Shown here one piece after another: positions 1,656-13,209 of a DNA stretch of 13,376 nucleotides. Under the pieces are notes generated by a model. The model worked only from the letters and a program-made list of their open reading frames with translations, made no database searches and was not told the DNA's origin. The translations under genes and the position numbers were made by a program. Origin of the DNA: a virus; IMG/VR virus record IMGVR_UViG_3300031760_000017, one strand, 5' to 3'. Positions within the stretch are counted from its first letter, which is position 1. Each line of letters starts with the position of its first letter.

Positions 1656-1684
1656 TTGATTTTTAACAAAATTTTTGATATAAT
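1656..1684 (+). promoter_or_regulatory. Sigma-70-type promoter P1 (-35 TTGATT, 17-bp spacer, extended -10 TGaTATAAT)
   Basis: TTGATT at 1656-1661 and TATAAT at 1679-1684, with TG at 1676-1677. First of 11 near-identical promoter copies sharing the core TTGATTTTT(T)A..AAA(A)TTTTTGATATAATATATA. Drives ORF 1716. Confidence 0.7.
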
Positions 1685-2168: not shown

Positions 2169-2197
2169 TTGCAACTTTAAAAAATTTTTGATATAAT
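2169..2197 (+). promoter_or_regulatory. Promoter P2 (-35 TTGCAA, 17 bp, TGaTATAAT)
   Basis: TTGCAA at 2169-2174; TATAAT at 2192-2197 with TG at 2189-2190. Drives ORF 2262. Confidence 0.65.
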
Positions 2198-2721: not shown

Positions 2722-3477
2722 ATGTTTTGTTTAAATTATTATCCACATGAAAAATATCTTAATGATGCGGATTAGTTAAAAATCAAATATCGTCCTGCAG
2801 ACCGCACATTAGAAGATTTTTTAAAAACTTATCAAAATATTTCAATAATTATAGACGTATCTGAGGCTTTTGAAGAAACTGATGCCGAATTATTAAAAGC
2901 ATTGTATGATAAATATTCTAATTTTAAAATAATCTTTGATTTTAATAATAAAGAACATTTATCAAGAGCAGAAAAATATCAAATTCCGCATTTCTTCTTG
3001 AACCCAGTTACAAGTTTTGATCAACTTCATGGATTAATTCAATATCATCCAACAGATATGTATATTTGTGAAGAAATGGGGTTCTATATCTTTTGGATTA
3101 GTAAATTATTGCATGAAAATAATATAAAAGTTAGAGTGTTTCCTAATATTTGTCAATCTAGTTTTGCGGAAACTCCTAGTATAAAGACTTTCTTTGTCAG
3201 ACCAGAAGATATATCTATCTATTCAAATTATGTAGATGTGTTTGAATTAGTTTCAGATAAAGATAGACAGAAAGTTTTATTTAAAATTTATAAACAGCAA
3301 AAATGGTTTGGTAAATTACAGGAGGTAATTCCATCATTTAAAGACGATGTTGATAACAGATGTCTTATGAGCGCTTTTGGAAACCTTCGGACTAGATGTA
3401 AAAAACGATGTATGTATAATCCTAATGGGTGTAAGACTTGTGATCGTTTTGTTGAATTAGCAAACTCTTTAAAGTAG
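2722..3477 (+). CDS. Hypothetical protein (about 251 aa if read through) with an in-frame TAG at codon 18 (2773-2775) and a C-terminal Cys-rich segment (RCKKRCMYNPNGCKTCDRF)
   Basis: ATG at 2722 has a very good SD (TAAGGAGA, 6-nt spacer). The frame stays open for 251 codons apart from the single TAG at 2773-2775. The six-frame track instead starts this ORF at an internal TTG (2902), which has no SD and no upstream ATG. The gene itself ends in TAG (3475-3477); read-through there would add 13 codons up to a TGA at 3514-3516. Confidence 0.5.
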
Positions 3478-3512: not shown

Positions 3513-3541
3513 TTGACATTTTTAATAATTTTTGATATAAT
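3513..3541 (+). promoter_or_regulatory. Promoter P3 (perfect consensus -35 TTGACA, 17 bp, TGaTATAAT)
   Basis: TTGACA at 3513-3518; TATAAT at 3536-3541 with TG at 3533-3534. Drives ORFs 3574 and 3904 and the tRNA-Arg/Ile pair. Confidence 0.75.
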
Positions 3542-3573: not shown

Positions 3574-3891
3574 ATGGCGGCAAGAGGTAGCGTACTTAAA
3601 CAAGAGGTAGCAACAAAGATTTTGGCGGCGTTTCCAGGAAGCTTTTTATACAATGATGGAAAGGAAATCCGCATTAATGGTGTAGAAGATGGACAGAACC
3701 TACAGATTAAAGTAACTTTGACATGCGCGAAGGTTGCGGTTGAAGGCGGAGAAGATACAGTTCTACCAGGAGAGAATATTAAAACAGCATCTCCTGCACA
3801 GGCTATAACTACATCAGAAAAAGTTCCTCAGGAGCCTACTAACGAGGAAAAAGAAAGACTTAAAACATTGTTAAATCAGTTGGGTATGTAA
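3574..3891 (+). CDS. Hypothetical protein (105 aa)
   Basis: Promoter copy P3 upstream, RBS AAAGAAAGGATATAAAAA then ATG, TAA stop. Confidence 0.6.
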   Translation: MAARGSVLKQEVATKILAAFPGSFLYNDGKEIRINGVEDGQNLQIKVTLTCAKVAVEGGEDTVLPGENIKTASPAQAITTSEKVPQEPTNEEKERLKTLLNQLGM

Positions 3892-3903: not shown

Positions 3904-4203
3904 ATGAGTGCTGGAGTACATCTTTATCAAATGACACATTGGGAAACCGCAGGAAAATGGCATGTTAATGATGTTAAAAATTTAAGTGGTCGTTCAGGTA
4001 AATGGTACACTCCAATGCGTATTCTTGATGTCTCTGTTGAAGAATATATCAATCTTTTAATAAATACTTTTAACGCAAAAGGAATTTACTATTATGAACA
4101 AACTGATTATTTAGCTTTCTATTTTCTAAAAGAATTTGAAGCTAAGAAATTTTGTTCTTATGTAAATAAAATAGCGCGACAAAAAAATTATTGTTGCGCT
4201 TAA
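3904..4203 (+). CDS. Hypothetical protein (99 aa)
   Basis: RBS GTAAGGAAGTATTAGA then ATG; TAA stop. Followed by a structured leader and two tRNAs. Confidence 0.6.
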   Translation: MSAGVHLYQMTHWETAGKWHVNDVKNLSGRSGKWYTPMRILDVSVEEYINLLINTFNAKGIYYYEQTDYLAFYFLKEFEAKKFCSYVNKIARQKNYCCA

Positions 4204-4467: not shown

Positions 4468-4496
4468 TTGATTTTTTATAAAATTTATTATATAAT
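4468..4496 (+). promoter_or_regulatory. Promoter P4 (-35 TTGATT, 17 bp, TATAAT) upstream of the sigma factor gene
   Basis: TTGATT at 4468-4473; TATAAT at 4491-4496. No TG extension in this copy. Confidence 0.65.
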
Positions 4497-4537: not shown

Positions 4538-5389
4538 ATGGCAGAAATTAAAGCATCTGAAGCAACCACTGTTAATTCTATTAAAGTTTATCTCAATGAA
4601 ATTAGTCAGTATAATCTTCTTTCAAAAGAAGATGAAGTAAGATATGCGAAAGCTGCAGCAAATGGAAGTCAGGAAGCAAAGAATGCTCTGATTAACCACA
4701 ATCTCCGTCTTGTTGTTTCTATTGCTAAAAAGTATATGGGAAGAGGGCTTACTCTTTCTGACCTTATTCAGGAAGGTAATTTTGGTCTGATAAAGGCAAC
4801 AGAAAAGTATGATGTTGATAAGGGATTTAGATTTTCTACTTATGCAACCTATTGGATTAAGCAGTCTATTTCCCGTGCGGTTATGGACCAGACTAGAAAT
4901 ATCCGTATCCCTATTCATGTTATTGAGCTGATTAGTAAGATTAAGAAAGCTGAAAGAGATTTTCAGCAGTCTTATAACAGAGAGCCGAAAGAAGTGGATA
5001 TTGCGGCAGTTCTTGGAATTGATGTCAAGAAAATTAAAGAAGCGTATTCTTGGATGAAAGATACTTCTTCTCTTGATGTAGTCGTGGGAGATGATGAGGA
5101 TACCACTGTTGGTTCTTTTATTGAAGATGAGTCTGTTGCGGATTCTTTTATGAATATTGAGGATGATGAAAGAAAAGAAGCAGTTCAGAATATTCTTAAT
5201 ACCTTGAATGACCGTGAACAGCTTATTATTAAAAATAGATTTGGTATTGGCATGAATAGAGCAAAAACACTTGATGAAATTGGTAAGGAACTTGGTATTA
5301 GTAGAGAACGAGTTCGTCAGATTGAAGCGGCTGCTCTTAAGAAGCTCCGCAATCCGCGAAGAGCTGCTCTGCTAAAGGAATTTTTCTAA
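4538..5389 (+). CDS. Sigma-70 family RNA polymerase sigma factor (RpoD-like, regions 2-4 present, no region 1.1)
   Basis: Region 2 motifs are seen in the translation (LIQEGNFGLIKATEKYD..GFRFSTYATYWIKQSISRAV), with the RpoD-box-like YATYWIKQ. The region-4 helix-turn-helix is TLDEIGKELGISRERVRQIEAAALKKLRNP. Length is 283 aa. Promoter copy P4 and RBS AAAAAGGAG lie upstream. Confidence 0.85.
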   Translation: MAEIKASEATTVNSIKVYLNEISQYNLLSKEDEVRYAKAAANGSQEAKNALINHNLRLVVSIAKKYMGRGLTLSDLIQEGNFGLIKATEKYDVDKGFRFSTYATYWIKQSISRAVMDQTRNIRIPIHVIELISKIKKAERDFQQSYNREPKEVDIAAVLGIDVKKIKEAYSWMKDTSSLDVVVGDDEDTTVGSFIEDESVADSFMNIEDDERKEAVQNILNTLNDREQLIIKNRFGIGMNRAKTLDEIGKELGISRERVRQIEAAALKKLRNPRRAALLKEFF

Positions 5390-5459: not shown

Positions 5460-5488
5460 TTGATTTTTTAAAAAATATATTATATAAT
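5460..5488 (+). promoter_or_regulatory. Promoter P5 (-35 TTGATT, 17 bp, TATAAT)
   Basis: TTGATT at 5460-5465; TATAAT at 5483-5488. Drives small ORF 5519. Confidence 0.65.
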
Positions 5489-5518: not shown

Positions 5519-5695
5519 ATGACAGTTAGAGAATTGTTAGAGGAAATTATTGAAGCAGCGCCTAATAGATTGGATTCAGAAATTTATTTTGAGACACCAA
5601 TGAATGATTATTCAGTTCAATGTTATGTGCTTGATGATATAACGAGTTATGGTAATAATGATGGTCTTTTCTTTGTACTTAAAGAAAATATTTGA
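5519..5695 (+). CDS. Small hypothetical protein (58 aa) not in the ORF track
   Basis: Promoter copy P5 lies upstream with RBS AAGAAAGGATTATTAA then ATG. Translation is MTVRELLEEIIEAAPNRLDSEIYFETPMNDYSVQCYVLDDITSYGNNDGLFFVLKENI. The TGA stop overlaps the -35 of promoter P6. Confidence 0.45.
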   Translation: MTVRELLEEIIEAAPNRLDSEIYFETPMNDYSVQCYVLDDITSYGNNDGLFFVLKENI

Positions 5696-5720
5696 TTTTT
5701 AAAAAAATATATGATATAAT
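5692..5720 (+). promoter_or_regulatory. Promoter P6 (-35 TTGATT, 17 bp, TGaTATAAT) heading a tRNA operon
   Basis: TTGATT at 5692-5697 overlaps the TGA stop of ORF 5519. TATAAT at 5715-5720 with TG at 5712-5713. A roughly 180-nt ORF-free leader runs to tRNA-Asn. Confidence 0.65.
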
Positions 5721-5973: not shown

Positions 5974-6429
5974 CGCCGGCTTCACGCCGATATAGTGAGG
6001 TGTTCTTCCTACCAAAAAGGAATAGTGTAAAAGAACGGTTCATAAAAGAAGGTAAGTCCCAAAGGGCACAGAAATTATGAAAAGTACGTACACGTTTGCA
6101 TTTGAGATACGCGGCTCAAATGATGCACGCCCGCGGTATGGGACAGGTCAGATTCTAGTAAGTGAGCTAGAATTGTGGGTTCAAGCCCCACTGCTGCACT
6201 TAGAGTTGATTTACCTCTTGCCAATGTAAATCTAAGCTGTTGAGGATACAGCCGCGAGCGCCATCGGGGGAGTAAAGGACGAGTGGTCAGGCATTCTTGG
6301 TGCCTGGTAAAAGTCAAGTATCTTTGAAAGGTTATAAAGGTGAAACCTTTCTCGCATCTCAGATAGTGAGAGTAAGGTATAGTAGATACCTGAGCAGGGC
6401 TGAAAGGGTGGCACCTATCTACTAAATAT
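5974..6429 (+). ncRNA. Candidate structured non-coding RNA or spacer (about 455 nt) between tRNA-Asn and the UAG-anticodon tRNA
   Basis: No ORF with an RBS on either strand. GC is clearly higher than in coding DNA. Several local helices, including a perfect T-arm-like hairpin GTGGG-TTCAAGC-CCCAC at 6175-6191 that lacks the rest of a cloverleaf. Co-transcribed from P6. Confidence 0.35.
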
Positions 6430-6536: not shown

Positions 6537-6719
6537 ATGAAAACTGTTTATGAATTAACAGAACAAGATATTATAATTATTATAGCGAATCATTTTTCCG
6601 TTCCATTGGATTCTGTTGAACTAGAACATTATAAATCTATGGAAGGGTTCTATACAGATGAGCATTATGTTGACTATGTAAAAGGGAAAGTCACAATAGA
6701 AGGAAAAGCAAATAAGTAA
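6537..6719 (+). CDS. Small hypothetical protein (60 aa) embedded between tRNAs
   Basis: RBS GGAGAATAAAATTT then ATG; TAA stop. Flanked by the UAG-anticodon tRNA and tRNA-Asp. Confidence 0.45.
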   Translation: MKTVYELTEQDIIIIIANHFSVPLDSVELEHYKSMEGFYTDEHYVDYVKGKVTIEGKANK

Positions 6720-6798: not shown

Positions 6799-7224
6799 CT
6801 AGAGGAAATGGCATCGCCTCTCTAAATATAGACTGCAGGGTTCGCCACTCGGATCAGAAAAACGAGCTTGTAGCAAGGCGTAATGACTACACGAGCCATA
6901 AAACGTGCATCCATCTTCGTGTGTGCTTATTATTATAAGTAAGTGTGGAAGAAGTATGAGTGGAAGTCTCATAAAACTAAGTTCCCGAGGCTCAAACTAC
7001 AAATCGGATTTGTCAGATAAGACATTAAAATCGACGTTAACATGGATTAGAGTTAAACTACCACTGGCATGACCAAATATTCAGGCTTTTCAATTCTAAA
7101 CAGCCTGCCTGAAGGCGCATGATATGTGGCTTTGTGGCAAACGTCTAATAAGAAGGCAAAGTAAACTCAGTTATCAGTATTTATCGCGCCTCTTGATAAT
7201 GCGTACCAAGATAAATCTTTTTAT
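6799..7224 (+). ncRNA. Candidate structured non-coding spacer (about 425 nt) after tRNA-Asp
   Basis: ORF-free and GC-richer than coding DNA. Hairpins include ACAAAT-CGG-ATTTGT and CAGGC...GCCTG. Confidence 0.3.
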
Positions 7225-7253
7225 TTGATATTTATAAAAAAATATAATATAAT
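7225..7253 (+). promoter_or_regulatory. Promoter P7 (-35 TTGATA, 17 bp, TATAAT)
   Basis: TTGATA at 7225-7230; TATAAT at 7248-7253 within a TATAATATAATAT run. Drives ORF 7301 and tRNA-Glu. Confidence 0.55.
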
Positions 7254-7300: not shown

Positions 7301-7429
7301 ATGCTTTATATTGTATATTACAGAGATGATGACAAAGTAAGACATATGACTTTCGTTAGAACTTATAAAGAAGTTCTTTTTATTCAGGAAAGATTTGATT
7401 TTGTTACAGTAGAATGTTGCGGTAAGTAA
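7301..7429 (+). CDS. Very small hypothetical protein (42 aa) not in the ORF track
   Basis: Promoter copy P7 lies upstream with RBS AAAAGGAGAGTAGCT then ATG; TAA stop 5 nt before tRNA-Glu. Translation is MLYIVYYRDDDKVRHMTFVRTYKEVLFIQERFDFVTVECCGK. Confidence 0.35.
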   Translation: MLYIVYYRDDDKVRHMTFVRTYKEVLFIQERFDFVTVECCGK

Positions 7430-7507: not shown

Positions 7508-7676
7508 TTAATCGTTGATAGACAAGTATTAAAAGTCGATAAGAAAATAAAGCCGAATTACATAGGGACATTGAGGAGAGACACCTCATAGAGCGGGGGA
7601 AGATCCATAAGATACTCTAAAAATCATCTATGCAACCCTATACGGATGCGTGTGATTGAAACTGCACACTCAGCGA

Positions 7677-7705
7677 TTGATTTTTATAAAAAATTTTGTT
7701 ATAAT
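7677..7705 (+). promoter_or_regulatory. Promoter P8 (-35 TTGATT, 17 bp, TGtTATAAT)
   Basis: TTGATT at 7677-7682; TATAAT at 7700-7705 with TG at 7697-7698. Drives ORF 7730. Confidence 0.7.
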
Positions 7706-7729
7706 ATTTATATGAGAAAAGGAGAAAAA

Positions 7730-7885
7730 ATGAGAAGAATTAATTATACAGCGACAATATTAGGAACAATATTTGTTGAAGACTGGCGAGATGATGATGA
7801 AATTTCTTCTCTTATTGATGAAGACCTTGAGGATAGAGGAGTTCCTTTTCTAGAAATTAATGAAATTGAATTTGATGAAAATTAA
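7730..7885 (+). CDS. Small acidic protein (51 aa)
   Basis: Promoter copy P8 lies upstream with RBS AAAAGGAGAAAAA then ATG at 7730. The track's longer ORF from 7646 would start inside the promoter, so the 7730 start is preferred. The C-terminal half is Asp/Glu-rich; ends in TAATAA. Confidence 0.5.
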   Translation: MRRINYTATILGTIFVEDWRDDDEISSLIDEDLEDRGVPFLEINEIEFDEN

Positions 7886-8401
7886 TAATAAAGACAGATA
7901 CAGCAAGATATTTTGTAAATAAAAATAATCCAAATTTTTATACTATGAAGATTACCTGTCTTGGGCGAATAAAAAACAAAATATAGCAATGGTGATTAAA
8001 GAAAATAGTGTACATAAAACTTTAAAGAGTCCACCACACTGCGGCGGTCGGTAGGGAGAGACCATAGCAGACTACCTAGTATAGCTGGAGTCATGACCAG
8101 CGGAATTCAGGCTATAGTGTAAAAAGGGAGCCTCGAAATGGACAAAGCTATATTTATATAAATTTGTTGAAACTCTTGGCTATGCATCTACTTGTAAAAA
8201 TAGCGGGATTTATAAATGATAGACTGATTTTATAAATGGATTGAAAGCAAGATACGGTCAACAAGGTGGGACAGGCAGAGAGAGAACATTTACCCACGTT
8301 AATTATAGTGGCGATTAGAGTTGGTTACCTAGGCAAAATGATTTTTATTCAAAAGTATGGTGGTAAGCTTTGTTTCCACGCCGAGTCACTATAATTTCTA
8401 G
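7886..8401 (+). ncRNA. Candidate structured non-coding region (about 515 nt) upstream of the suppressor tRNA
   Basis: ORF-free. Begins with the conserved 17-mer AAAGACAGATACAGCAA also found at the P9 transcript start. Contains several 5-9 bp helices (GGTAG...CTACC, GCTGG...CCAGC). Confidence 0.3.
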
Positions 8402-8475
8402 CGCCCGATAGTGGAGTGGCTTAACACAGCGGTCTCTAAAACCGCGGATCCTGGGTTCGAATCCCAGTCGGGTGA
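8402..8475 (+). tRNA. Suppressor tRNA, anticodon CUA (reads the UAG amber codon); class I, amino-acid identity undetermined
   Basis: Acceptor CGCCCGA/TCGGGTG (one G-U). Anticodon stem GCGGT/ACCGC with loop CTCTAAA, giving U33, C34 U35 A36 and A37. Variable loop GGATC. T-arm CTGGG-TTCGAAT-CCCAG is perfect. Discriminator A. The anticodon arm differs from a Trp(CCA)-type loop CTCCAAA by a single nucleotide. Confidence 0.8.
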
Positions 8476-8645: not shown

Positions 8646-9053
8646 TCACGGATGCACTTTCGTGTAAGAAAAATGGTGCAACCTACATCTGGGTTAAACG
8701 AGGGTGTGCTTTTGGAGAATTTCTATAGAGAAAAATTCTCCCTACTAATCAGGGTAATGATTAGCCAGCGGTTTGGTAAACACGCAGCCCCAGCCAAAGG
8801 GTAGTTAAAATAAGAGGTGGTTTGATGCAAGCCTAAGCATCCAAGACGAGTGATCATAGTCTTGCTAAATGCGGGATCCACGATACCAAATAGTGTAAAG
8901 ACGTAGCATACCGAGCTTTAACTCGGAGATTCAAAGTAACGCAATGATTTGGTGGGCGTGCAGCCGCAATCCTTTATAATCTGAGCAAGTAGTTAAGACG
9001 AAAATGCTCAGTTGTAATATAGACTGCGGTTTATAGAGAATATAAGCCGCTTT
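8646..9053 (+). ncRNA. Candidate structured non-coding spacer (about 408 nt) between tRNA-Met and tRNA-Thr
   Basis: ORF-free apart from antisense shadow ORFs. Perfect 9-bp hairpin GGAGAATTT-CTATAGAGAA-AAATTCTCC at 8713-8740, plus TAATCA-GGGTAA-TGATTA and CCGAG-CTTTAA-CTCGG. Confidence 0.3.
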
Positions 9054-9126: not shown

Positions 9127-9154
9127 CTACACGATAGCAAATAAGTGTATAAAC

Positions 9155-9338
9155 GGATGTGCGGTTAGCTGACCTTAAAGTGAAGTATGCCCTATTCCGA
9201 GGAGGCGATTTCGGGAGTAGTTATTTTGGTTAGTTGACGAAACTGTAAAACTACGAAATATCGGATGACCAAAAAGCTTCCTCCAGAGAACAAATGTCGG
9301 GAGGTTAAACGTGGATGGGTGGTTGGCTGACCTTAAAG
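9155..9338 (+). repeat. Imperfect 26-nt direct repeat (23/26): GGATGTGCGGTTAGCTGACCTTAAAG at 9155-9180 and GGATGGGTGGTTGGCTGACCTTAAAG at 9313-9338
   Basis: Seen by eye. The second copy lies immediately 5' of the CAA-anticodon tRNA at 9344. The first is followed by degenerate, non-folding sequence. Confidence 0.5.
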
Positions 9339-9343
9339 CTTAT

Positions 9344-9497: not shown

Positions 9498-9526
9498 TTG
9501 ATTTTTTATAAAAATTATAATATAAT
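9498..9526 (+). promoter_or_regulatory. Promoter P9 (-35 TTGATT, 17 bp, TATAAT)
   Basis: TTGATT at 9498-9503; TATAAT at 9521-9526. The transcript begins with the conserved AAAGACAGATACAGCAA motif and runs into the tRNA-like fragment and tRNA-Leu(UAA). Confidence 0.65.
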
Positions 9527-10209: not shown

Positions 10210-10506
10210 ATGCAGATTTTGTATAAAAGTGATGTAACAGGAAAAACTTATAAGTCTGAGGAAGCACTTTTGGAAGCGGAAGCTAAGGTATCAGAAGCTA
10301 AGAAACAGGAAGAGCTTGAAAAGAAAGCAAGAGCAGAAGCTGCTAAGTATGTTCAGGATAAGCTGACTGCCGCATCTACCGCACAGAAGGAAGCTCAGAA
10401 AGCGTTAAGTGAATTTTGTAAGAAATATGGAACATTTAAAACCTCTCTAAAGAGAGATGAAGACCCGTGGAGTTTTTTCGATTTTTTATTTAATCCTTTT
10501 GAGTAA
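10210..10506 (+). CDS. Lys/Ala/Glu-rich small protein (98 aa), hypothetical
   Basis: RBS AAAGGAGAATTATT then ATG; TAA stop followed at once by a clear intrinsic terminator. Charged, coiled-coil-like composition similar to 2262-2660. Confidence 0.6.
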   Translation: MQILYKSDVTGKTYKSEEALLEAEAKVSEAKKQEELEKKARAEAAKYVQDKLTAASTAQKEAQKALSEFCKKYGTFKTSLKRDEDPWSFFDFLFNPFE

Positions 10507-11685: not shown

Positions 11686-11743
11686 GGGGAACTCCAGGGT
11701 AAGATACTCTGCAGGAGAGGTTGTGCTCCCCACTTTATTTTTT
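11686..11743 (+). terminator. Terminator-like GC-clamped hairpin with U-tract at the end of the tRNA-Ser/Tyr/Val operon
   Basis: GGGGA at 11686-11690 pairs with TCCCC at 11727-11731 around an internal CTCC/GGAG helix, followed by ACTTTATTTTTT. Confidence 0.4.
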
Positions 11744-11762
11744 ATAAAAAATATGATATAAT
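11734..11762 (+). promoter_or_regulatory. Promoter P10 (weak -35 TTTATT, 17 bp, extended -10 TGaTATAAT)
   Basis: TTTATT at 11734-11739 lies within the T-tract of the upstream terminator-like hairpin. TATAAT at 11757-11762 with TG at 11754-11755. Drives ORF 11794. Confidence 0.55.
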
Positions 11763-11793: not shown

Positions 11794-12018
11794 ATGAAAA
11801 AAGCTATTGCAGATTTTAATAAAGCATATGAAACAGACGATATGTTTCATGAATATTTGGCTTTTAGCCAGTTTTTTCAAAGAGCTTTTATAAGTAAGGG
11901 CGGATATATAATTGATACAGGTAATTTTGAAACTTGCAATAGAGAATTGATAGATTTAGTTGAAGCAAAAATTCATAAACATCCTTTGTTATGGAAATTG
12001 TTTTTTATGGTGGCATAA
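11794..12018 (+). CDS. Hypothetical protein (74 aa)
   Basis: Promoter copy P10 lies upstream with RBS AAGGGAGAAAAATATT then ATG; TAA stop immediately followed by the ATG of the next gene. Confidence 0.55.
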   Translation: MKKAIADFNKAYETDDMFHEYLAFSQFFQRAFISKGGYIIDTGNFETCNRELIDLVEAKIHKHPLLWKLFFMVA

Positions 12019-12513
12019 ATGATACAATTATATACAAGTTATTTTTATCAAATCCGCCACTTTAAAAAGAATATGGTGCCTATTTCGACAGCAATGTGGG
12101 ATCCAAAATGGTATCATGATTGGATGGGTCATGATTATACTTTTAAGGACAAGAGGGGAATATATAATGGTATTCGCGCAGAATGTTTTCATTTTGATGG
12201 AGAAGATCATGGATGCGGCGATCAATGTTTACTCTCACCCAAAGATCCGTCTAAATGTGAATTTTTGCGGCGTCTCCGCCAACAATATAATAAATTAAAT
12301 TTTCAAGATATTATGACTCGATGTGAAAGGTTAGCTTCTTACATTCAGTCTATTGAAAATTTACAAGAATTACCTATTTTAGTTTTTGTTTTTTATGAAA
12401 CTCCTACAAACTTATGTTCAGAAAGAAAAACTTTACAAAATTGGTTTAAAGATAATGGATATGATTTACAAGAATTGAAATATCCAATAAAAGATAATTA
12501 TATTGATATTTAA
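12019..12513 (+). CDS. Hypothetical protein (164 aa) with an HxD/CGD Cys/His cluster
   Basis: ATG directly after the previous TAA, in the same frame. 495-nt ORF ending in TAATAA; the stop overlaps promoter copy P11. Confidence 0.6.
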   Translation: MIQLYTSYFYQIRHFKKNMVPISTAMWDPKWYHDWMGHDYTFKDKRGIYNGIRAECFHFDGEDHGCGDQCLLSPKDPSKCEFLRRLRQQYNKLNFQDIMTRCERLASYIQSIENLQELPILVFVFYETPTNLCSERKTLQNWFKDNGYDLQELKYPIKDNYIDI

Positions 12514-12531
12514 TAAAAATTTTGATATAAT
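12503..12531 (+). promoter_or_regulatory. Promoter P11 (-35 TTGATA, 17 bp, TGaTATAAT)
   Basis: TTGATA at 12503-12508 overlaps the end of ORF 12019-12513. TATAAT at 12526-12531 with TG at 12523-12524. Drives the tRNA-Ile/Pro/His cluster. Confidence 0.65.
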
Positions 12532-12804: not shown

Positions 12805-13209
12805 ATGGGTTATTATGCAATATATGCTTATGAAAATATGTATGGCGGTCTTCATGGAATAAATGATTATGCAGTAGTAGAAGCTGATTCTTATGAAATG
12901 GCAGAGAAATTTGCTGCAGAACTTTCAAGTGATGTTATAGACTCCTATCTTGACGATGAAGAAATTCGTGAAGCTGCGGGGATTGATGAAGATGATGTCT
13001 TTTTTACAGATGAAGATGATAAGCTTGATGATTTTTATGCAGAAGATATTGCATATGACATTTACACTCTGGATGAATCTAAAATTAGAGATGAAATATC
13101 ATTAAATTCTTATGCAGATGAATTTAGAGACGACCCGCATGAATTTATTGAAAAATATAAAGTTAAAGGAGAAGATAAATTTTATGAATTTTATGATAGT
13201 CTCTTTTAA
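12805..13209 (+). CDS. Highly acidic protein (134 aa), candidate DNA-mimic or anti-restriction-like protein
   Basis: RBS AAAAAGGAGAAAATAAA then ATG; TAA stop. The translation is Asp/Glu-rich throughout, with stretches such as DEDDVFFTDEDDKLDDFYAEDIAYD. Confidence 0.6.
   Translation: MGYYAIYAYENMYGGLHGINDYAVVEADSYEMAEKFAAELSSDVIDSYLDDEEIREAAGIDEDDVFFTDEDDKLDDFYAEDIAYDIYTLDESKIRDEISLNSYADEFRDDPHEFIEKYKVKGEDKFYEFYDSLF

Follow-up and report, generated by a model that had tools for sequence, protein, structure and literature searches.

The stretch described here is a 13,376-nt window of viral DNA (IMG/VR record IMGVR_UViG_3300031760_000017), which carries a gene for a 283-aa sigma-70-type factor, 11 copies of one predicted promoter, and 22 tRNA genes, one of which has the anticodon CTA and is therefore an amber suppressor. 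All credible genes of the window lie on the + strand, including approximately 18 small open reading frames (ORFs) with strong AAGGAG-type ribosome-binding sites, 16 of 18 of which end in TAA. An 84-kb ENA metagenome contig matches the whole window at 100% identity (contig positions 1993-15368), and a sister contig of 139,781 bp (IMGVR_UViG_3300021400_001206, IMG/VR viral) encodes a sigma factor that is 98% identical to that of the window, with the gene order kept. Tail-protein genes are present on this 139.8-kb contig as well, which bears out the phage origin proposed in a preliminary description of the window, and more distant sigma relatives (35-95% identity) are found on viral contigs of roughly 100-240 kb. 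The window is the early region, in the standard code, of an uncultured ~140-kb phage whose late genes are TAG-recoded. The host type is probably Firmicutes; metagenome-assembled genome (MAG) labels on related contigs include Acutalibacteraceae, Erysipelotrichaceae, Bacilli and Lachnospiraceae.

The sigma gene and its domains are arranged as follows:

4538..5389, + strand: phage sigma gene, 283 aa, TAA stop (Pfam, NCBIfam, PHROG 351)
4577..4672, + strand: sigma region 1.2, residues 14-45 (Pfam PF00140 Sigma70_r1_2, E 5e-10, 39.7 bits, cut-off 22)
4688..4897, + strand: sigma region 2, residues 51-120 (Pfam Sigma70_r2, E 1e-20, 73.7 bits, cut-off 24)
4925..5146, + strand: sigma region 3, residues 130-203 (Pfam Sigma70_r3, E 8e-21, 74.4 bits, cut-off 25.3)
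5195..5353, + strand: sigma region 4, residues 220-272 (Pfam Sigma70_r4, E 2e-18, 65.9 bits, cut-off 24.1)

The preliminary description had assigned the 283-aa ORF to the sigma-70 family on the basis of regions 2 and 4 and had proposed a search with domain models, and in that search r1_2, r2, r3 and r4 were all significant and every one exceeded its curated Pfam cut-off. Family membership is also given by the TIGR02937 superfamily model (123.7 bits, cut-off 42.9), and the PHROG 351 profile 'RNA polymerase sigma factor' matches with an E-value of 4.1e-90 and 304.6 bits. Residues 14-282 align with B. subtilis SigA 101-369 and with E. coli sigma-70 371-610; only 13 residues precede region 1.2, and ~100 N-terminal residues are missing when compared to B. 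subtilis SigA. Because the alignment begins at SigA residue 101, region 1.1 is absent, as had been claimed. The best solved relatives are Firmicutes SigA proteins, namely 7ckq, which we take to be B. subtilis SigA, and two chains labelled only 'SigA' (E ~1e-77 to 1e-79).

In the NCBIfam ranking RpoD models come top and RpoS a close second, and no equivalog cut-off is reached: the RpoD equivalogs NF004208, NF006666 and TIGR02393 (RpoD_Cterm) score 330, 309 and 303.5 against cut-offs of 555, 572 and 354, respectively, and the RpoS equivalog scores 295 against 379. The protein therefore lacks three marks of a group 1 primary sigma factor (region 1.1, RpoD equivalog scores and the Trp-Trp dyad) and possesses a fourth, the canonical residues that read the -35, extended -10 and -10 bases. 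The sequence is RpoD/SigA-like, and in place of the earlier epithet 'primary-like' the term 'group-2-like' is to be preferred, because no RpoD or RpoS equivalog cut-off is reached and the wedge is YW instead of WW. Judged by its architecture, which sets the class, the phage sigma would be a group-2-like factor derived from sigma-A and devoid of region 1.1. Like the group 2 members RpoS, mycobacterial SigB and cyanobacterial SigB-E, it consists of regions 1.2-4.2 with region 1.1 absent or reduced, and it shares with them -35 and -10 readers almost identical to those of the primary sigma, which confer overlapping promoter specificity, with RpoS models scoring near RpoD. Unlike them, it is phage-encoded, stands under an early phage promoter, reaches no equivalog cut-off and has a YW wedge; RpoS keeps the WW wedge.

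The promoter base-reading residues of sigma-70 are known from established structural work, and they can be transferred to the phage protein by adding 328 to its residue numbers to obtain those of E. coli sigma-70. Residues 99-115 read FSTYATYWIKQSISRAV, and the -10 reading and melting segment FSTYATYWIKQSISR within region 2 contains Y105 (W433 in E. coli), W106 (W434), Q109 (Q437), S112 (T440) and R113 (R441), so that the -12 readers Q437 and R441 are kept. The readers of the extended -10 TG, H127 and E130 (H455 and E458), are retained at the N-terminal edge of region 3, and the -35 readers R256, E257, R260 and Q261 (R584, E585, R588 and Q589) are retained in region 4. The equivalents of R584, E585, R588, Q589, H455, E458, Q437 and R441 are near-invariant in the 150 nearest representatives. 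Since all -35, extended -10 and -10 readers are kept, the phage sigma should read the same code as host sigma-A. The substitutions are W433 to Tyr, T440 to Ser (conservative) and R436 to Lys; furthermore, region 4.2 surface residues that are contacted by other factors in E. coli sigma-70 are changed (K593 to A, R596 to K, H600 to N), and H600 to N is kept in nearly all phage-clade sigmas examined.

The most distinctive feature of the sigma is the change of WW to YW in the DNA-melting wedge. The Trp-Trp wedge (W433, W434) nucleates DNA melting. In a seed-free HMMER search of 1.84 billion representatives, the best 150 were aligned and proteins of more than 315 aa were counted as long; the wedge position is W in 118/122 long proteins (the remainder includes one with a gap at this column), and it is Y, F, H or N in 15/28 short versus 3/121 long proteins (Fisher p = 1.6e-10). 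In a neighbour-joining tree the window sigma falls within a clade of 19 tips, all 19 of which are short and 16 of which are non-W, and one non-W cluster is labelled Caudoviricetes and resides on ~136-kb contigs. Longer RpoD-like genes of phage records retain WW. By these sequence comparisons, a Tyr (non-Trp) wedge marks a clade of short sigmas without region 1.1. The invariance of FSTYATYWIKQ across the 20-kb viral loci fetched for comparison (L numbers below) is no evidence for this, since YATYWIKQ was itself among the search seeds and YWIRQ variants escape them. YW was also rejected as a phage-only marker, because YATYWIKQ turns up in MAGs of Deltaproteobacteria and Planctomycetes, in sigma paralogs present in several copies. 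This Tyr-Trp wedge is shared by the paralogous sigma genes, more than one per genome, of several Deltaproteobacteria/Thermodesulfobacteriota MAGs, and the expanded alternative-sigma family may be a deeper relative of the phage clade.

Wedge strength has been studied in sigma-32, where activity follows the order WW > HW > QR and weaker wedges were proposed to tune specificity (PMC10216364, citing Koo et al. 2009); WW is the wedge of sigma-70 and sigma-38 (PMC10216364). Combined with this ranking, the Tyr wedge marks the phage protein as an alternative-type rather than a housekeeping sigma. A literature search for W433Y or W433F sigma mutants returned unrelated proteins only.

The sigma gene is surrounded by the 11 promoter copies, which are listed here with their predicted transcripts, together with the suppressor tRNA:

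1656..1684, + strand: early promoter TTGATT-17-TGA-TATAAT, predicted to drive ORFs 1716-1922 and 1922-2158
2169..2197, + strand: early promoter TTGCAA-17-TGA-TATAAT, predicted to drive ORF 2262-2660
3513..3541, + strand: early promoter TTGACA-17-TGA-TATAAT, perfect 12/12 plus TG; ORFs 3574-3891 and 3904-4203, tRNA-Arg, tRNA-Ile
4468..4496, + strand: early promoter TTGATT-17-TATAAT, without TG, directly 5' of the sigma gene, whose ATG lies 42 nt past the -10 box
5460..5488, + strand: early promoter, predicted to drive ORF 5519-5695
5692..5720, + strand: early promoter with a 181-nt leader; tRNA-Asn, tRNA-Leu, ORF 6537-6719, tRNA-Asp
7225..7253, + strand: early promoter; ORF 7301-7429, tRNA-Glu
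7677..7705, + strand: early promoter; small ORF (ATG 7731), amber-suppressor tRNA(CTA), tRNA-Met, tRNA-Thr, tRNA-Leu, tRNA-Ser
9498..9526, + strand: early promoter; tRNA-Leu, ORF 10210-10506, six more tRNAs
11734..11762, + strand: early promoter TTTATT-17-TGA-TATAAT; ORFs 11794-12018 and 12019-12513
12503..12531, + strand: early promoter; tRNA-Ile 16 nt past the -10 box, then tRNA-Pro, tRNA-His, ORF 12805-13209, tRNA-Phe
8402..8475, + strand: amber-suppressor tRNA (anticodon CTA), part of the early transcription programme

A scan for TTGAYW-N17-TATAAT with at most one mismatch gave 13 matches where 1.1 were expected, and none of 200 shuffles reached 13. A 45-nt weight matrix separates exactly 11 copies, all on the + strand at 41-54 bits, from a next best score of 12 bits; the matches at 506 (within an ORF) and 11135 (minus strand) both score below 12 bits and are not family members. 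The similarity extends past the hexamers into a spacer T-tract followed by an A-tract, an AT-only discriminator and a common leader, RTAAGAT...AAGGA. All 11 copies are intergenic or overlap just the final codons of an upstream ORF and are oriented like the genes, and 9/11 sit 16-65 nt 5' of a tRNA or of a start codon with a strong Shine-Dalgarno sequence, the other two having leaders of 181 and 263 nt. The repeats are accordingly best regarded as predicted sigma-70-type promoters of one class. The count of 11 copies and the exact 17-bp spacer (11/11, as is TATAAT) given in the preliminary description are confirmed; its 'TTGATT or TTGACA' -35 box applies to seven copies (TTGATT six times, TTGACA once) and misses TTGATA (two), TTGCAA and TTTATT (one each), TTGnnn being present in 10/11, and the extended TGn said to be usual is found in 7/11 and lacking in 4/11. 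The promoter alignment proposed there likewise yields one family with conservation past the hexamers and Gram-positive sigma-A features.

The same family recurs in related phages. In relatives whose sigma is 60-98% identical, the family numbers 7-15 copies per 20 kb, which lie on the strand of the sigma gene with a single exception, in locus L018, and a promoter-pattern scan of the collection found, among the matches listed, more than 120 stretches in many large phages. In a wider survey of 116 related loci, in which sites were chosen by the core TTGA-N19-TATAAT alone, 806 sites lie on the gene strand versus 48 on the opposite strand. At positions outside this selection, 519 non-redundant sites show T(-17) at 0.92, T(-15) at 0.93 and G(-14) at 0.59, as well as a T-tract after the -35 box, a mid-spacer A-tract (0.82-0.91), an AT-only discriminator and an upstream A-rich tract at -47 to -43 (A ~0.5). 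A TRTG -16 region and an upstream A-tract are hallmarks of Gram-positive sigma-A promoters. By its sequence, the family has the features of the Gram-positive sigma-A promoter type, with TTGAnn, the TRTG -16 motif, TATAAT and the upstream A-tract. A family promoter is found within ~200 nt 5' of the sigma gene in 20/31 lineages, and gene, position and promoter are all retained in lineages with identities as low as ~42%.

Two lineages bear on whether the phage sigma shapes these promoters. The L018 sigma has the substitutions H127N, E130K and R113Y, so that both TG readers and the R441 equivalent are lost, and TG is nevertheless kept in 9/10 of its promoters, whereas the L028 sigma retains the TG readers H and E, with TG in 0/12 promoters. 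This mismatch suggests that promoter TG content is not set by the phage sigma.

The place of the family in the genome can be followed on the sister contig, of which 61,834-110,153 was assembled from four overlapping loci obtained in four protein-seeded scans. Family copies extend over 65.2-89.2 kb, without exception on the + (gene) strand, and the series ends at a strong terminator behind a DUF2828/Ro-like gene; no family copy occurs in the adjacent 21 kb (89.2-110.2 kb) of TAG-recoded tail and structural genes. Past the terminator (91.1-110.2 kb) the ORFs are broken in the standard code and become long when TAG is read as sense, giving proteins of 947 aa with 18 TAG, 678 aa with 11, 981 aa with 7 and 1491 aa with 31, one of which matches a PHROG tail protein. 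Because the family is limited to the standard-code region and is absent from the 21 recoded kb, it is an early-region promoter class.

A second stereotyped early class is located at 62.5-68 kb (~12 copies within 61.8-68.2 kb of the sister contig), and consists of an A-tract, cTTGACAAA, a variable spacer and TGnTATAAT. It has the leader RTAAGATAAAGGAAAGG in common with the family of the window, so the conservation downstream of the promoters can be explained as a module of 5' untranslated region and Shine-Dalgarno sequence. Five copies of this second class (three minus, two plus) precede very short predicted transcripts that form a GC-rich hairpin, e.g., GGAATTTCGGCGCGAGGCGACGGCTCGCGCC, followed by a terminator; this repeated small-RNA-like hairpin family has no match in Rfam.

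Perfect TTGACA-17-TATAAT sites also occur in the late region of the sister contig, at 104,703 (+) and 110,092 (-). The latter, at ~110,050-110,110 (-), precedes the 1491-aa recoded gene and lies inside a 16-nt inverted repeat (TTTGACAAGTGAAAAA … TTTTTCACTTGTCAAA) that looks like an operator or a hairpin. A different element, TTGGKCAAR...RAWTAA-N12-AWTTTnWATATATAWT, stands just 5' of the first TAG-recoded operon (~91,022) and is kept in at least eight related phages, with further copies at 104,694 (-) of the sister contig and at 4205 of locus L004. A conserved -35 box at the canonical distance is lacking from this element, for which TTGGKCAA...TATATAAT is a short form. Between the early-region terminator and this boundary element, a ~90-nt block (…GACGGCTCGGCGCGCAGACACCCG…GGATTTTTT…) is conserved in related phages and may, to judge from its sequence, be a small RNA.

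The last early gene encodes a 516-aa DUF2828/DUF7788 (Ro60/TROVE-like RNA-binding) protein (locus L007, 19081-20631; downstream of the window in L001, from 16859 onward). It is common to at least 80 viral contigs of up to ~200 kb at 50-100% identity (175 relatives were confirmed in the scan) and is ~40% identical to proteins of the large Bacillus siphophages Tsamsa and PBC2. Its position beside a big tRNA island is suggestive.

Which sigma reads which promoter can be proposed from the domain content, the residue conservation, the anatomy, distribution and conservation of the promoters, and the recoding. The reading that we favour, with a probability of about 0.5, is that host sigma-A starts the early programme, that the phage sigma, which has the same code, then supplements or replaces it, and that the code switch mainly decides late timing. 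Once the phage DNA has been injected, host sigma-A holoenzyme would fire the family promoters, each giving a short transcript whose leader is stereotyped and whose ribosome-binding site is strong, and the early products would comprise small putative takeover genes, ~22 tRNAs, among them the amber suppressor that translation of the recoded late genes requires, and finally the phage sigma itself. The latter would bind the host core polymerase, use the promoter code of the host sigma and act as a substitute or booster for sigma-A, which would keep consensus-type promoters on in the course of infection, i.e., both early classes and the few perfect late ones. Late timing would then depend largely on the change of genetic code instead of a new promoter specificity.

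Several observations argue for host sigma-A as the primary reader. A family promoter precedes the sigma gene in 20/31 lineages, and no terminator is predicted between the perfect copy at 3513 and the sigma gene of the window, which implies that the host holoenzyme must fire first. The unmodified host holoenzyme is all that is available when the early promoters are injected, and their anatomy is that of strong sigma-A promoters. Because the base readers of the phage sigma are under constraint and the only abundant promoters of the genome that fit them are of the consensus type, the phage sigma very probably uses the family promoters too. The preliminary description had held that either sigma could read the promoters, which agrees, as regards the recognition code, with the retention of all base-reading residues. 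Its further suggestion of a dedicated transcription programme for the small genes and tRNAs is not supported in the sense of a programme dedicated to the phage sigma, given the early-region distribution of the family, its host-type anatomy, its presence before the sigma gene itself and a TG content that does not track the sigma.

Certain points weigh against the favoured reading. The assignment of readers depends on residue conservation and logic, the covariation test on few lineages, and the probable Firmicutes host on promoter and Shine-Dalgarno style, sigma similarity and the MAG labels of related contigs. With Tyr at W433, Ser at T440 and Lys at R436, kinetics or fine specificity may differ from those of sigma-A. 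In addition, the family is far more stereotyped in its spacer tracts and AT-only discriminator than sigma-A needs, which could reflect tuning to another reader, and a separate conserved motif exists at the early/late boundary.

This boundary motif is central to a rival model, which seems rather unlikely to us, in which the phage sigma is a middle or late factor that is made early and steers the host core to a different promoter class, for which the boundary element is the candidate, leaving the 11 repeats purely to host sigma-A. The sigma is indeed an early gene, the TG content of the family does not track its residues, a second promoter-like motif, conserved in at least eight related phages, immediately precedes the first TAG-recoded operon, and classic phage sigma cascades are built in this way (SPO1 gp28, T4 gp55). 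However, region 4.2 is intact and all canonical -35 and extended -10 readers are kept, whereas the late motif has no conserved -35 element; its upstream block lies ~34 nt from the TATAAT-like box, which fits an activator site better than a sigma contact. Moreover, there are just 2-3 copies of the late motif in 48 kb, and its sequence variation does not follow that of the sigma. It is even less probable, in our view, that the sigma is an accessory or decoy gene outside the promoter programme, which would titrate the host core or a host or phage anti-sigma, or sustain sigma-A-type transcription in stationary or sporulating hosts. The altered region 4.2 surface (K593 to A, R596 to K, H600 to N) would suit such a role, and sporulation-type phage sigmas have been reported as non-essential accessory genes (bioRxiv 10.1101/2021.11.12.468384), but gene, position and promoter persist across lineages to ~42% identity, and the DNA-reading residues of the sigma are clearly constrained, as would not be required of a pure decoy.

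The stereotypy itself has suggested that the promoter set might be a private channel tuned to the phage sigma, with host sigma-A providing only a priming round. We consider this improbable, and give similarly low credence to two related proposals: that the Tyr-Trp factors are sigma-A mimics without region 1.1 that share the public code and fire just on perfect, AT-rich and easily opened promoters, which the phage supplies in dozens, and that their weaker Tyr-Trp melting pulls the polymerase off imperfect host promoters with the code unchanged. The uniformity of the family exceeds what the hexamers need, as AT-only discriminators and spacer tracts are kept in 519 sites; the replacement of W433 by Y, F, H or N marks the short-sigma clade; the sigma-32 ranking (WW > HW > QR) led to the proposal that weaker wedges tune specificity (PMC10216364); and the perfect copy at 3513 could prime sigma synthesis via read-through. 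On the other hand, TTGAtt-17-TGnTATAAT is by known rules a strong sigma-A promoter, from which the host polymerase is not excludable, and its TG content does not covary with the TG readers of the sigma. The same family is found in a very broad set of 100-200-kb phages, its downstream conservation is explained by a leader and Shine-Dalgarno sequence common to both early classes, the literature search for Tyr-wedge sigma mutants gave unrelated proteins only, and perfect consensus promoters are present in the late region too.

In the rest of the window, the suppressor tRNA(CTA) ties the early transcription programme to the TAG-recoded late genes. Most of the neighbouring window ORFs matched no Pfam or PHROG family of known function; Pfam and PHROG scans found no anti-sigma factor or regulator among the neighbouring small ORFs, and neither CRISPR nor an anti-sigma gene turned up in the regions examined. 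A megablast of the 3 kb around the sigma gene against 50,697 phage records gave no match, and tblastn gave only matches below 60% identity. With Rfam, tRNAs were the sole matches in the window, and the early region upstream gave no credible match.

Long, ORF-free and GC-richer stretches lie between the tRNA genes (~5975-6428, 6800-7220, 7510-7670, 7890-8400, 8646-9053 and 9128-9342), with no Rfam match in any of them and folding z-scores of -1.7 (5975-6428) and -3.1 (8646-9053). They may represent new structured RNAs, degenerate tRNAs, or tRNA-processing elements such as theta ribozymes, as theta (HDV-like) ribozymes have been reported beside phage suppressor tRNAs (PMC10879173). An early-region gene at 2722-3477, preceded by a hairpin terminator at 2676-2701, starts at ATG 2722, has an in-frame TAG at codon 18 (~2773-2775) and has TAG as its apparent stop, so that the suppressor may be required for its expression. 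The listed 79-aa ORF at 7646-7885 overlaps the promoter copy at 7677, and the true gene more likely starts at ATG 7731 behind AAAGGAG and encodes ~51 aa.

Each component of this system has known counterparts. SPO1 is a large virulent Firmicutes phage that has a host-takeover cluster of small early genes, each with a strong sigma-A promoter and ribosome-binding site. The phage described here resembles it in placing a sigma among many small early genes with strong promoters of their own, and differs from it in that gp28 is highly diverged and recognizes another consensus, whereas the present sigma keeps the sigma-A code, and in its 22-tRNA set and TAG-recoded late genes. The early promoters of T4 and T5 (e.g., T5 PN25) form stereotyped near-consensus families of the host type that are read by the unmodified host holoenzyme. 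They are likewise present in many copies, with conservation reaching into the AT-rich spacer, the upstream A-tract and the initially transcribed region; unlike them, the family reported here is of the Gram-positive type, with a TRTG -16 motif, and two early classes, TTGACAAA plus an A-tract and TTGATTTTT...AAAAA, occur side by side.

TAG-recoded phages of the gut and rumen with suppressor tRNAs were reportedly described by Borges et al. in 2022 (cited in PMC10879173), and share with the present phage standard-code early genes, in-frame TAG in late structural genes and an amber-suppressor tRNA in the early region, whereas the literature read on such phages does not describe an early promoter family or a sigma as part of the switch in code. 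Replacement of the host factor has a precedent in a huge phage that encodes its own sigma-70-type protein and also targets the host sigma-70 gene, which implies that the host factor is replaced (PMC7162821, Al-Shayeb et al. 2020), although the genome considered here is ~140 kb, not >200 kb. Phage sigma factors, stereotyped early promoter arrays, tRNA islands and TAG recoding are thus each known already, and nothing observed calls for a new kind of system. What is new is a well-delimited example that unites sigma, promoter array, tRNA island and TAG recoding, together with the recognition of a short sigma-A-like clade with a non-Trp wedge.

To our knowledge, the phage sigmas studied so far (T4 gp55, SPO1 gp28 and gp34, phiEco32 gp36) all change promoter specificity, whereas the sigma described here retains the housekeeping code of the host, in a lineage of abundant uncultured rumen or gut phages that switch genetic code. 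The promoter set provides compact modules of promoter and leader, very strong and ready for use in low-GC Gram-positive hosts, and the Tyr-for-Trp wedge a simple mutational handle on how melting capacity sets promoter stringency. Were melting stringency the source of specificity, in place of a new recognition sequence, the early genes and tRNA genes of the phage would draw RNA polymerase to themselves, and one of these genes encodes the suppressor by which the recoded late genes are unlocked. If, as we favour, the phage sigma is a substitute for sigma-A, a single promoter code would serve throughout infection, and timing would be delegated to translation via the amber suppressor.

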